In this document: piece by piece, positions 7,228 through 10,642 of the stretch
Numbering within the stretch: the first letter of the stretch is position 1
Layout: each line of letters opens with the position of its first letter
Source of the DNA: Ilumatobacteraceae bacterium
Lineage (GTDB): Bacteria; Actinomycetota; Acidimicrobiia; Acidimicrobiales; Ilumatobacteraceae
Length of the DNA stretch: 64,000 nucleotides
Direction: 5' to 3'
NCBI GenBank assembly: GCA_036746695.1
Contig: DAIODP010000001.1
Span: 1,642,787 to 1,706,786 of the forward strand
Made by a program: the position numbers and the translations under genes
The notes under the pieces: model-generated
Seen by the model: the letters and a program-made list of their open reading frames with translations, nothing else
The model's database searches: none
What the model was told of the DNA's origin: nothing

Positions 7228-7566
7228 ATGGAATCAAGACTGCCATACGAAGTGTTGGTAGAACTTCACTCGGGTGGAACTCTTCACCTAGCACTATCGG
7301 ACCAGGACAAGATCTTGATGATTAGATCATTTGTGCTTTCTCTCCCACTGCAAGACCAAATCGTTCAGGACTTTTTGGTACTACTCGATGACTACGAGCA
7401 GAAATCAAAGCCGATTGACATCTGGAAACTCAAACTTGACGGTGCTAAAGCTGCCCCCTGTGAGGTGTGCGGAGGAGAAACACGGTTTGGCGGAAAAGGT
7501 GAATTCTCGCTTTGTCACGAGCACAACAATTGGCGTACTTATCTCAAGCTAAGGCGTGCGGAATGA
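7228..7566 (+). CDS. Hypothetical small protein with a C-terminal Cys/His cluster
   Basis: 112-aa ORF preceded by a strong SD (aaggagg, 7 nt upstream) and containing CEVCGG...CHEH. No family recognised. Confidence 0.55.
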   Translation: MESRLPYEVLVELHSGGTLHLALSDQDKILMIRSFVLSLPLQDQIVQDFLVLLDDYEQKSKPIDIWKLKLDGAKAAPCEVCGGETRFGGKGEFSLCHEHNNWRTYLKLRRAE

Positions 7567-7801
7567 GCTAGGCCAGGCATTATCGCCAGTATCGGATTGC
7601 CACGCTCAAGTATCGTCATTTTCGCTGCAATTCATAGACGGTAACAGTATGTGCAAATCCGTAACTGGATTCTGAAATCAACGAATTCCAGTCGGAATAG
7701 TCTTGAGTTTAATTAAACATCCCGAACTCAACATAAGTAGTCATAAACTTTGACAGAGCCAGTCGCTAGTTGGAATCGTCGAAAGCAAATGCGGAGAAAA
7801 C

Positions 7802-10642
7802 ATGCCCGTCAATCTCGGAGCTGAATCGGATGATGCTATTGATGCTCTCATTAACACGTGGAGCGTCTGGGAAAGTTATGAGACTTATTACCTTGATGAA
7901 CTAATACCTACAATTATCAACGAATACCCAAACAACGAGAAACTTACGCTTGTAGAAACCGCCCTAGTAGCAAAAATCAAAGGAGTGTTGACAAATGAGC
8001 AGTGGTTAAATCTGAGGGAATTAGTCAGTGCGAGGATCCAATACAAGCGAAATAAGATTGTTCGTGAAGAACAGCAAATTCGTGCTGAAAAAGAACAGCG
8101 CGAGAAGGACGAAGTGAGGCTGCTGGAGAAGGAGAGAGTAAAACTAGAAGAGTTGGAGTTGGAAGAGAGGAATAAAAGAAATCATCTTAAAGAATATACA
8201 GAATTCTGCAAAAATCTAGATTCACAACTCAATGATCAATACATGGAGACATTAACGATTCTGCAAAATTTCGTAGATCAAAAAGTCGTTAAACAATCCG
8301 AAGTTGATGCGCTTGTGTCAAGATTTGTTCAAAATTGGTCACGAGCAAACCTGAGCATTTCACTCGATAAGCAGCAAGCACTAGCTGTCGGTGAAATAGG
8401 CGGGGATATCCGATTGACCGCAAGGGCAGGAAGTGGGAAGACTACAACTCTTGTTACTCGAGCAGTATTTCTCATTCAACATTGCAGATTTGAACCCAAA
8501 TCAATTTTGCTTCTTGCATTTAACAGAAAAGCTGCTGAAGAAATGCAAAAACGAATCAAGGAATATCTTGGCGATCAAAGTCCATATGTCATGACTTTTC
8601 ACGCGCTTGCCTATGCACTGGTGCATCCAACAGAGGAAATCATGATGGATGTTGGAAACTCAAAGACATTAAGCCGCTTCGTTTCGGAGATTGTTGATCA
8701 AAAGATTCGACATCCAGTTATGTTTATGCGAATTCGCTCATTCATGCTGCGGTATTTTCGAGATGAGTGGAATGCGAGAATTGAAGCTGGGTACAACCTT
8801 GAAAAAGACGAATTTTTGAAAATGAAACGAAACCAACCATCGGAAACACTGAATGGGGAATACGTAAAGTCATTTGGCGAACGCTTAATTGCTAATACTC
8901 TCTTTGAAAATAACATTGAATACCGGTATGAGATGAATTTTTTCTTGAATGGCAAGCCCTATCATCCAGATTTTACAATTAGTTTTCCTAACGGGGGTGG
9001 GATCATTCTCGAATATTTTGGTATGTCTGGAGACAAAGATTATGACAAAACTTCTGAAGATAAGCGGAAGTATTGGAAGCGCCAGGCCAAATGGAAACTA
9101 ATTGAGAGAAACCAATTTGATATTCATCAAGGCGACAACGAGTCTTTTTGTTCTGGATTAGTGGATGAACTCAAAACTTTAGGAGTCAGAACGAGAAAGT
9201 TATCAGATGATGAAATTTGGAGCCGAATAAGCAAGAGAGCAATAACCCACTTTGACGAACTATCTAAGTCCTTTGTTGCTCAAGCGAGGAAGGCACAACT
9301 CTCTGGTGATGGGCTGACGGAACTGATTAGTAGGCACCAAACTGATTCTGATGTGGAAGAGAAATTTCTAACGATACAGAAATCTATTTTTTCATCATAC
9401 TTGAGTGAGCTTGAGAAAAATCACGTTGACGATTTTGACGGGTTGATGCAAAAGTCAATTGGCTTAGTAAACAGCGGATCAACTATTTTTTCGCGTATTA
9501 AGGAAACACAAGTTGGTGACTTATCTGATCTTCGATTTATCATGATCGATGAATTCCAGGATATTTCTCCAATGTTCTATGACCTAGTTAATGCTGCTAG
9601 ACAGAAATCCGAAGATCTTGAATTCTTCTGTGTGGGAGATAACTGGCAGGCAATTAATTCATTCGCTGGTTCGGATCTTGTCTATTTCGAACGATTTGAG
9701 AATTACTTCAGACAGATCAAGCAACTGGAGATATCAACTAATTATCGATCAGCAAAAACAGTCGTGAAACTAGGTAATTGCATAATGCAAGGCAAGGGAT
9801 CTCATGCTCTGCCACATCAAGATGAAAGTGGGTCAATCGCGATTTTTGATCTTCAAGATTTTCAAGTATCGGGAATTGAGAAGGAAGAACATGGCGGGGA
9901 TGTGATTACACCGGCACTTTTAAGGATTTTAAGTACATTGTTGCAAAGAAATAGCAATAATAAAGTTGTATTACTGAGTCGAAGCAATTCGGTCCCTTAT
10001 TTTGTTCGTTACAAAGAATCTACAGTTACGATAGATCAGGGTCTAGAGAAATTTCTCAAACATTTGAAGAGCTATTTGTCTATAGAAGATTCTTCAAGGG
10101 TGTCTATTTCTACAGCGCATGGATACAAAGGTCTTGAAAACGACGCAGTGATCATAATGGACGCTATTGAACGACGGTATCCACTTATTCATCCAGACTG
10201 GAGGTTCAATCAAGTGTTTGGAAGCAGTATGGAGAAGATCATTGAAGAAGAACGGCGTCTTTTTTACGTTGCAGCTACGCGATCAAAGGAATTGACTTAC
10301 ATTATTACGTCAAGCGATCAACCCAGTGATTTTCTATCTTGCTTGAGACATCTTCCTGAATTGGAACACATTTCGTTGTCTGAATTGCCATATAGTCCTG
10401 TTGGCAAAATAGATCACCATGTAATTCGAGTGTTTAATTCGTACTCAATAAAAGAAGAGCTGAAAACCGACGGATATCGTTGGGATCCGACAACAAAATC
10501 CTGGTACAAGCAAGTTCCCAAAGCTGCGTTTTCAATAAAAGAAATCCAAATGAAAGATTGGAATAGCGGAAAATTCAATATCAAGGTTTACTCAGATAAC
10601 TTTGAATTGTTTTGGGAGCAGATCGCGAGCAGTTCCACTTGA
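7802..10642 (+). CDS. UvrD/Rep-type SF1 helicase with N-terminal coiled coil, internal PD-(D/E)xK/Vsr-like insert and a small C-terminal domain
   Basis: Motif I ARAGSGKTT, Ia LLLAFNRKAAEEM, II IMIDEFQD, III VGDNWQAINSFAG, V/VI TAHGYKGLEND / FYVAATRSKE. The insert reads SFGERLIANTLFENNIEYRYE...YHPDFTISFPNGGGIILEYFG. The C-terminus reads DGYRWDPTTKSWYKQV. Confidence 0.8.
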   Translation: MPVNLGAESDDAIDALINTWSVWESYETYYLDELIPTIINEYPNNEKLTLVETALVAKIKGVLTNEQWLNLRELVSARIQYKRNKIVREEQQIRAEKEQREKDEVRLLEKERVKLEELELEERNKRNHLKEYTEFCKNLDSQLNDQYMETLTILQNFVDQKVVKQSEVDALVSRFVQNWSRANLSISLDKQQALAVGEIGGDIRLTARAGSGKTTTLVTRAVFLIQHCRFEPKSILLLAFNRKAAEEMQKRIKEYLGDQSPYVMTFHALAYALVHPTEEIMMDVGNSKTLSRFVSEIVDQKIRHPVMFMRIRSFMLRYFRDEWNARIEAGYNLEKDEFLKMKRNQPSETLNGEYVKSFGERLIANTLFENNIEYRYEMNFFLNGKPYHPDFTISFPNGGGIILEYFGMSGDKDYDKTSEDKRKYWKRQAKWKLIERNQFDIHQGDNESFCSGLVDELKTLGVRTRKLSDDEIWSRISKRAITHFDELSKSFVAQARKAQLSGDGLTELISRHQTDSDVEEKFLTIQKSIFSSYLSELEKNHVDDFDGLMQKSIGLVNSGSTIFSRIKETQVGDLSDLRFIMIDEFQDISPMFYDLVNAARQKSEDLEFFCVGDNWQAINSFAGSDLVYFERFENYFRQIKQLEISTNYRSAKTVVKLGNCIMQGKGSHALPHQDESGSIAIFDLQDFQVSGIEKEEHGGDVITPALLRILSTLLQRNSNNKVVLLSRSNSVPYFVRYKESTVTIDQGLEKFLKHLKSYLSIEDSSRVSISTAHGYKGLENDAVIIMDAIERRYPLIHPDWRFNQVFGSSMEKIIEEERRLFYVAATRSKELTYIITSSDQPSDFLSCLRHLPELEHISLSELPYSPVGKIDHHVIRVFNSYSIKEELKTDGYRWDPTTKSWYKQVPKAAFSIKEIQMKDWNSGKFNIKVYSDNFELFWEQIASSST

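Follow-up and report, generated by a model that had tools for sequence, protein, structure and literature searches.

A helicase IV-related protein with a predicted nuclease-fold insert in a defence island of an Ilumatobacteraceae bacterium

The helicase-nuclease gene and its motor

We analysed a 64,000-nt stretch of contig DAIODP010000001.1 from an Ilumatobacteraceae bacterium. "The window" denotes this full stretch, and coordinates count from its first letter. The gene of interest encodes a 946-aa protein that combines a UvrD/Rep-class helicase motor with an internal segment of predicted nuclease fold, and we refer to it as the helicase-nuclease (Table 1). A small gene with a Cys/His cluster precedes it in the same orientation, with 235 bp between the two. 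Both open reading frames (ORFs) have a Shine-Dalgarno sequence, AGGAGG 6 nt before the ATG of the small ORF and GGAG 8 nt before the ATG of the helicase-nuclease. A scan for consensus promoters and terminators between the two genes found none. An earlier note on this DNA had described the pair as a candidate two-gene defence module.

Pfam detected UvrD-helicase (PF00580) at residues 189-636 (E = 4e-35) and UvrD_C (PF13361) at residues 748-838 (E = 2e-19) of the 946-aa protein, and the core aligned with the structures of PcrA, UvrD and Rep. We observed the Q motif, Walker A and motifs Ia, II (DExQD), III, IV, V and VI in the order of the UvrD/Rep helicases of superfamily 1A (SF1A). The first part of domain 1A aligned to PcrA 7-100 and to HelD 175-284 of E. 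coli. GSGKTT occupies residues 210-215, followed by DEFQD (motif II, 583-587), GDNWQAINSFAGS (motif III, 612-624, including GDNWQAI at 612-618), YR (motif IV, 648-649), TAHGYKGLE (motif V, 771-779) and VAATRSKE (motif VI, 823-830). The complete SF1A set named in the earlier note was therefore found in place, and every motif was invariant in our main alignment of 37 full-length homologs (38-72% identity). This invariance indicates that the motor is under selection to work.

The best NCBIfam match was helicase IV (PRK11054, NF008276), with 191 bits against an equivalog cut-off of 543. A score so far below the cut-off marks the protein as a relative of helicase IV and not as an ortholog. By its motifs and profile matches, we class the 946-aa protein as an SF1A (UvrD/Rep-class) helicase of the helicase IV branch.

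Table 1. Coordinates of the helicase-nuclease gene, its predicted domains and the features upstream of it
Feature	Position	Strand	Extent and basis
Helicase-nuclease gene, whole functional unit	7802..10642	+	946 aa; ORF list, Pfam, NCBIfam, homologs
N-terminal domain	7802..8356	+	residues 1-185; helical head, charged stretch, conserved segment leading into the helicase
First part of domain 1A	8357..8626	+	Q motif Q192; Walker A ARAGSGKTT 208-216, K213; motif Ia LLLAFNRKAA
Insert in place of domain 1B	8627..9301	+	residues 276-500; helical flanks and predicted nuclease-fold core
Predicted PD-(D/E)xK / Vsr-like core	8819..9211	+	residues ~340-470; profiles, alignment, AlphaFold, Foldseek
Rest of helicase core (1A-C, 2A, 2B)	9302..10351	+	aligns to HelD 364-676 and PcrA
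C-terminal domain	10352..10639	+	residues 851-946, ~95 aa; absent from HelD
Small zinc-ribbon-like gene	7228..7566	+	112 aa; real gene, outside the helicase unit
Conserved block carrying the small gene	7081..7619	none	blastn ends of homology to L105-L108
Non-coding leader of the helicase gene	7620..7801	+	common only to the 93% relative L010

The insert and the terminal domains

The interval between motifs Ia and II measures 224 residues, compared to ~80 in E. coli HelD, which leaves ~145 extra residues. It carries the motifs VKSFGE (355-360), YHPDF (387-391) and ILEYFG (402-407). The core is laid out as a helix with K356-S-x-G-E360, a strand from P389-D390-F391 and a strand with I-L-E404-Y-F406-G407, and further on come D411/D413/Y414-D415 and K421-R422-x-x-W425. 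These residues were invariant or nearly so in the 37 homologs; E360, P389, D390 and E404 were invariant throughout, as were K356, D415, K421 and R422.

The earlier note had compared the insert to a restriction-endonuclease or Vsr-type fold, and profile and structure comparisons agreed with it. PADLOC profiles searched with the insert alone matched PDC-S68 (6e-16, profile positions 1100-1183 of 1221), PDC-S69 (1e-8) and HEAT_CxxC_PD-DEXK (2e-8). Residues 276-500 were modelled by AlphaFold with an input of 28 homologs. The model had a mean predicted local distance difference test score (pLDDT) of 80.2, with 88-97 in the core, and the core topology was alpha-beta-beta-beta-beta-alpha-beta. The first core helix opened with E360, P389-D390 preceded a strand and the next long strand contained E404-Y-F406. 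As modelled, E360, P389-D390 and E404 form the classical E...PD...(D/E)xK layout minus the Lys. Foldseek against predicted viral structures (BFVD) gave 31 matches at E ≤ 1e-3, down to 6e-6 with probability 1.0, and their names included VSR endonuclease, group I intron VSR homing endonuclease, DUF559, DUF2726, restriction enzyme and Holliday junction resolvase.

Searches against curated families and solved structures gave less. A Pfam scan of residues 301-500 at E ≤ 10 returned no match, and so none to the Vsr, DUF559 or DUF2726 models. When the insert alignment served as a sequence profile against the PDB, no nuclease was recovered, and the sole match was at chance level (E = 0.4). Foldseek against the PDB gave no match at E ≤ 1e-3 (best E = 5e-3). 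The top of that list, weak and non-significant, consisted almost entirely of PD-(D/E)xK nucleases: R2 retrotransposon endonuclease, Cas4-like ACE1, McrC, cap-snatching endonucleases, NucS, VRR-NUC and Hjc. Judged from the profile matches and the model, the insert has a predicted Vsr/DUF559-like PD-(D/E)xK nuclease fold that looks intact but is non-canonical.

The position of the canonical Lys of (D/E)xK is held by an invariant Phe (F406) in the 37 homologs. With Lys replaced, a different residue, K356 or K421 for instance, would have to take its part in catalysis; together with D415 and R422 these conserved positions could complete a nuclease site. The replacement also favours a different explanation, in which the insert is catalytically dead, a DNA-binding or regulatory accessory domain in place of 1B, and the protein is a helicase or translocase only. 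The lack of a significant match to any solved nuclease points the same way. However, the putative metal-binding acidic residues of the fold (E360, D390 and E404) are invariant at 38-72% identity, and so are K356, D415, K421 and R422, a degree of conservation unusual for a decayed site. Vsr/DUF559-type relatives, too, are not known to have the classical Lys. We consider a dead insert unlikely, a judgement that is independent of which biological role holds. We consider it probable that the protein is a helicase acting on DNA and that its nuclease-fold module is either functional or engages DNA.

The charged N-terminal stretch and the C-terminal segment pointed out earlier were both present. The N-terminal head is conserved and helical, with W20 and W23. 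It is followed by a charged, coiled-coil-like stretch, EEQQ...NKR (residues 89-126, nt 8066-8179), a segment that ranged from 0 to ~100 residues among the aligned homologs. The N-terminal domain matched no Pfam (E ≤ 10) or PADLOC family, and only its residues 165-185 aligned to E. coli HelD. The C-terminal domain includes DGYRWDPTTKSWY at residues 890-902, and its L887, W901 and W920 were invariant in the 37 homologs. Its AlphaFold model (pLDDT 81.5, 88-93 in the folded part) has the order beta-alpha-beta-beta-alpha-beta-beta, and as modelled the domain is a small alpha/beta ferredoxin-like fold. The best Foldseek matches in the PDB were Cas2-like or ferredoxin-like at a non-significant E of 0.2 (none at E ≤ 1e-3), and Pfam gave a weak DUF5710 match below the cut-off (E = 0.003).

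The small upstream gene, the island and the wider family

The 112-aa ORF, its Shine-Dalgarno sequence and its CxxC...CHEH cluster, all noticed earlier, proved to be real. Between the ORF and its counterpart in the 93% relative L010, 21 codon changes were synonymous and 8 non-synonymous, and 22 of the 30 differences fell at codon position 3. This coding signature identifies it as a real gene. CEVC lies at residues 78-81 and CHEH at 96-99. Across the family C78, C81, C96 and H99 were conserved, so that within CHEH only C96 and H99 hold up; these four residues are the likely zinc ligands. The small protein had 93 homolog clusters, most of them 60-96% identical and all ~112 aa long.

We then weighed the proposal that the small Cys/His protein and the helicase-nuclease work together as a defence module of two dedicated genes, such as a sensor or regulator with its effector. 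The shared orientation, the 235-bp spacing and the two Shine-Dalgarno sequences are in keeping with this, and L010, the 93%-identical contig, retains both genes. Against it, tblastn did not find the small protein at any of the 85 other helicase loci, including those of the 70% relatives L001 and L002. The 90%-identity cluster of the small protein has 78 members compared to 6 for the helicase-nuclease. In loci L105-L108, where the small protein falls in the same 90% cluster, the helicase-nuclease is missing, and behind the small gene come an AspBHI-like restriction endonuclease, a C5 methyltransferase and a HATPase_c_3/Z1/DUF4420 cassette. Blastn of the window against these loci showed 90-91% identity over 7081-7619 only, so the homology ends before the helicase gene. 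More distant small genes precede Z1/DUF4420/AIPR genes, FHA/protein-kinase/SF1B-helicase genes, or GmrSD and then a dnd cluster. The two-gene part of the earlier reading was wrong in our view, and we hold a dedicated module to be highly improbable.

The confinement of homology to 7081-7619 indicates that the small gene is a self-contained conserved block and that the place to its right can hold several alternative cargoes, of which the helicase-nuclease is one. Across the loci examined for this block (the window, L097, L098, L100, L103 and L105-L108), the 540-bp block stood directly upstream, on the same strand, of at least five different defence-type cassettes in freshwater Actinomycetota. 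The block may be a generic header, either a shared regulator or a marker of a recombination or cassette-exchange hotspot. The small gene marks a slot where defence cassettes exchange, and it offers a handle for finding new cassettes in freshwater Actinomycetota.

The location in a defence island, also proposed before, was borne out by the neighbouring genes. DrmA (E = 2e-137) and DrmB (2e-73), the core of DISARM, lie in the island. An HpaII-type restriction endonuclease and a C5 methyltransferase, which also matches DrmMII (3e-97), follow the DISARM-like set on the other strand. Then come the conserved block with the small gene, the helicase-nuclease, an AspBHI-like restriction endonuclease and the core gene PEPCK. 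The DISARM-like set occupies window positions 1-6623, with L011 1-1455 supplying the part beyond the window start. A gene joining NERD to an SF1 helicase (2379-3953) takes the place of the usual DrmC/DrmE; it matched PADLOC RTasNERD-Hel at 2e-37 and, weakly, Nhi at 1e-7. A 94-aa ORF at 6822-7106 (+), between the methyltransferase and the small gene, is annotated in two public assemblies of this genome. Neither Pfam (precomputed) nor PADLOC matched it, its composition is odd, and it may not be real.

The AspBHI-like gene (11086-12276) belongs to the methyl-directed (type IV) restriction endonucleases and shares the island with the C5-methyltransferase restriction-modification genes. Close relatives carry a different AspBHI-like allele directly after the small gene (L105 968-2260), with no nucleotide similarity to the one here. 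We considered the helicase-nuclease as part of the adjacent DISARM-like set and as a partner of the AspBHI-like gene. Both were ruled out because the links are not kept in relatives.

The GC content of the helicase gene is 39.5%, compared to ~58% in core genes. The window from 1 to ~12300 has a GC of 39-48%, against 55-60% in the flanking core genes overall and 58-60% in the adjoining PEPCK, FakA-like and RecG genes. At 90% identity the helicase-nuclease cluster has 6 members, whereas those of RecG and PEPCK of the same genome have 162 and 187. In nucleotide comparisons the leader at 7620-7801 was conserved in L010 and was not found in L001/L002 or in L105-L108, and nothing outside the helicase gene was similar between the window and the 70% relatives L001 and L002. 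In this genome, that of a freshwater member of the Actinomycetota, the helicase gene is a horizontally and recently acquired, low-GC, strain-specific insertion between the conserved block and the AspBHI-like gene.

No partner gene emerged around the family as a whole. At 94 loci we clustered all ORFs lying up to 6 kb from the gene; merging helicases at least 80% identical leaves 67 groups of loci. No neighbour occurred in more than 7 of the 67 locus groups, and those that recurred looked generic, such as response regulators and ABC ATPases. A search for a conserved small downstream gene, with the 72-aa gene of L001 as query, found none. The helicase-nuclease is a single-gene unit with no conserved partner.

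Many relatives in the protein databases are full-length (890-1015 aa) and are named "DNA helicase-4", "DNA helicase IV" or "UvrD-helicase domain-containing protein". Among 1.84 billion proteins, a profile of the nuclease core matched 210 clusters (50% identity) at E ≤ 1e-30, 686 at ≤ 1e-10 and 6462 at ≤ 1e-3. In the best 150 matches the domain lies mostly mid-protein, in proteins of 880-1175 aa, and many shorter ones look like fragments. One genome per species, 185,579 genomes held at most 305 relatives. These were scattered over phyla that include Chloroflexota, Cyanobacteria, Poribacteria, Gammaproteobacteria, Planctomycetota, Actinomycetota and Bacillota, among others. Such a patchy distribution is unlike that of a core gene.

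Phage genomes contributed almost nothing. The 50,697 phage records of INPHARED had no full-length match to the helicase-nuclease, and the 2.9 million contigs of IMG/VR held a single true member, whose neighbours are an integrase, a type I HsdR-N-like nuclease and IS21. On plasmids we found one true member, on Anabaena pANA03, adjoining a tyrosine recombinase gene. One relative lies inside a conjugative type IV secretion system (T4SS) region. A distant branch on Rhizobium plasmids (~27% identity) carries the same insert, with VKSxxE...YE...HPDF...IHEH in the aligned protein, and UvrD-type proteins matching the insert occur on Vibrio and other plasmids.

The aligned protein of the distant branch has 911 aa and is encoded on plasmid pAtAB2-73c of Rhizobium sp. 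AB2/73 (L096 4981-9130). This branch is without the N- and C-terminal domains of the family. The plasmid gene sits 25 bp after the gene of a 462-aa protein without a Pfam match; here the branch may have a true two-gene arrangement. Further matches of the insert were to plasmid-encoded proteins that carry the annotation AAA family ATPase or RecQ helicase (Hymenobacter, Vibrio fluvialis and Aulosira). Matches in such proteins suggest that the nuclease domain is a module combined with different NTPases.

These locations bear on the possibility that the protein serves the mobile element that carries it, through maintenance, replication or recombination, competitor exclusion or as a homing-type nuclease, and not host immunity. 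Members and relatives lie on plasmids by partition and recombinase genes, in the T4SS region and by the integrase and IS21, and the best structural matches of the nuclease include VSR-type phage homing endonucleases. Yet most members lie on chromosomes where no surrounding element is apparent, no replication or transfer gene is associated with them in a conserved way, and the gene moves as a lone cassette. We find a role confined to the carrier element quite unlikely.

For the genomic neighbourhoods, we compared three genes on each side of 36 diverse loci to Pfam and PADLOC and considered the 25 commonest families; neighbouring ORFs were called by a per-ORF rule on third-position GC (GC3), and some of these calls may be wrong. 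Defence context was strong in the window and in L001, L008 and L109. One related helicase follows three DndB-like genes, an HNH protein and an ERCC3-like helicase, and another comes immediately behind a full Zorya type I system that is accompanied by an integrase. A minority of the neighbours were Zorya, DpdE, type I and II restriction-modification, type I-F CRISPR-associated transposon, Uma2, PIN and transposase genes.

Several observations weigh against a defence role or an active nuclease. Most neighbours in the 36 loci were ordinary genes (RNA polymerase, tRNA synthetases, ClpC, thiamine pyrophosphate enzymes and LpxB). Only about one quarter of the loci had defence or mobile-element genes nearby, a rough estimate made without a background control. 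Two Dehalococcoidia genomes carry the helicase-nuclease in an identical metabolic neighbourhood. Nine Nostoc loci (L032, L034, L038, L041, L043, L045, L047, L054 and L082) are syntenic, as are six of Poribacteria (L051, L052, L061, L074, L075 and L087). Within each of these two clades the helicase-nuclease is at least 80% identical and has the same neighbours, in Nostoc with a ClpC-like gene ~1.7 kb upstream. The retention of the same neighbours points to long-term vertical inheritance in a non-defence setting. Literature searches (PDC-S68/S69, helicase IV with defence, UvrD-like nuclease insertions and DUF5710) found nothing on this architecture, and the Phe in place of the catalytic Lys belongs on the same side. 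A paper on type II Gabija and DarH turned out to describe different proteins. The earlier note had named homologs occurring mainly in conserved non-defence contexts as a finding that would speak against immunity; that pattern holds in part, in Nostoc, Poribacteria and Dehalococcoidia, but defence contexts also occur.

The same contexts favour a housekeeping-type repair or recombination enzyme, a helicase IV paralog with an end-processing or flap-cutting nuclease whose position in the island would be incidental. Its closest characterised relative is helicase IV, its synteny in the three groups above is stable and non-defence, and most of its neighbours are ordinary. However, a housekeeping enzyme fits poorly with a presence in at most 305 of 185,579 species and with a gene that is strain-specific and compositionally foreign in this lineage. 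It also fits poorly with repeated locations on plasmids and integrative or conjugative elements and near Zorya, Dnd-like, restriction-modification and transposon genes, and with a nuclease domain common to PADLOC defence candidates. We judge the repair reading unlikely.

Our preferred reading is that the helicase-nuclease acts alone as an ATP-driven nuclease-helicase and probably serves, as a single gene, in defence or against mobile elements, and we put the chances that it is correct at about even. The setting in a defence island, foreign composition, strain specificity, plasmid and integrative locations, near-absence from phages and a nuclease domain shared with PADLOC defence candidates count for defence. 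Immunity as the biological role is plausible, with a likelihood at or just short of even. The structural part of the earlier reading was right.

UvrD, PcrA and Rep translocate 3'->5' on single-stranded DNA, and at the fork it is their domains 1B and 2B that touch the duplex. The proposed motor would load on DNA with a 3' single-stranded region or end and would translocate 3'->5' like other SF1A helicases. The embedded nuclease, on the 1A/1B face beside the DNA path, would cut the DNA being unwound. With the nuclease at the 1B position, cutting would depend on ATP-driven movement, as in RecB, AddA and AdnB. The terminal domains may provide oligomerisation, auto-inhibition or target sensing and so control loading or activation, and the target would be incoming phage or plasmid DNA. 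A broader proposal, which we offer tentatively and regard as rather doubtful, is that helicase IV-derived proteins with a Vsr-like 1B nuclease form a new and widespread class of single-gene immunity that cuts only during translocation, with specificity set by the terminal domains.

If the defence role is true, the gene adds a compact single-gene system to those known and provides a clean model of the coupling between cleavage and translocation. If the protein is a repair enzyme instead, it shows that location in a defence island can mislead.

Comparison with known systems

Nuclease-helicase fusions recur in bacterial immunity (Gabija, Nhi, Hhe and Hna) and in repair (RecBCD and AddAB). The earlier note did not recognise the domain order as a named system, and we found no such order among the PADLOC v2 profiles.

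E. coli HelD (b0962) is collinear with the helicase-nuclease in the core, residues 165-275 corresponding to HelD 175-284 and residues 499-851 to HelD 364-676. Both have the GDxWQAI form of motif III and an N-terminal extension of ~190 residues. In contrast, HelD has ~80 residues and no nuclease fold at the insert site, lacks the 95-residue C-terminal domain and has an N-terminal domain that is not detectably similar. HelD is a core gene of E. coli, whereas the helicase-nuclease is accessory. Score and architecture both exclude the assignment as a HelD equivalog.

RecB, AddA and AdnB also combine an SF1A motor with a PD-(D/E)xK nuclease on a single polypeptide and couple cleavage to translocation. 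Their nuclease is RecB-type, C-terminal and accompanied by partner subunits; here it is Vsr-like, internal and without a partner. NCBIfam scores of 33-82 bits against cut-offs of 650-1697 ruled out this type, as did a C-terminal domain that is predicted to be ferredoxin-like and not a nuclease.

GajB of Gabija is a UvrD-like SF1A helicase, and many GajB models matched the protein (E = 1e-37 to 1e-14). These matches cover the generic helicase core only. GajB is not known to have a nuclease insert. Gabija was ruled out because no GajA (ATPase-TOPRIM) gene lies nearby and no partner is conserved in the 67 locus groups.

The PADLOC profiles that matched the insert resemble it in the nuclease domain only. 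Residues 343-436 of the query matched positions 1090-1183 of the 1221 in PDC-S68; the matches in PDC-S69 and HEAT_CxxC_PD-DEXK covered positions 170-275 of 289 and 181-264 of 288. The rest of these profiles is unrelated, and PDC-S68 and PDC-S69 are candidates only. Membership in PDC-S68 was ruled out, as there was no match along the whole 1221-position profile. The best structural matches, Vsr/DUF559/DUF2726 and the VSR-type (EDxHD) homing endonucleases, share the "PD...E-x-x-G" pattern without the classical Lys. They are small stand-alone or intron-encoded enzymes, not helicase inserts, and the similarity is structural only.

Nhi, as Bari et al. reportedly described it in 2022, is one polypeptide with an N-terminal nuclease followed by an SF1 helicase. 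Both proteins place a PD-(D/E)xK-superfamily nuclease and an SF1 helicase in a single chain. Here, however, the nuclease is internal to the helicase and of predicted Vsr/DUF559 type, and Pfam detects no NERD domain. The Nhi model was neither among the PADLOC matches of the insert nor among the best 25 of 43 whole-protein matches.

Closest in logic is Hhe, which Gao et al. are said to have described in 2020 as an Upf1/DNA2-like SF1B helicase (AAA_11/AAA_12) with a Vsr-like nuclease towards the C-terminus. Like the reading preferred here, Hhe is a single-gene defence system in which a helicase is fused to a Vsr-like nuclease. The Hhe model gave no PADLOC match to the insert even at E ≤ 10. The helicase-nuclease differs in that its motor is SF1A, of the helicase IV branch, and its predicted nuclease sits at the 1B position. 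By nuclease position, motor class and these profile results, we assign the protein to neither Nhi nor Hhe. A nuclease inside the motor, within an accessory domain that touches DNA, is unlike any characterised system compared here.

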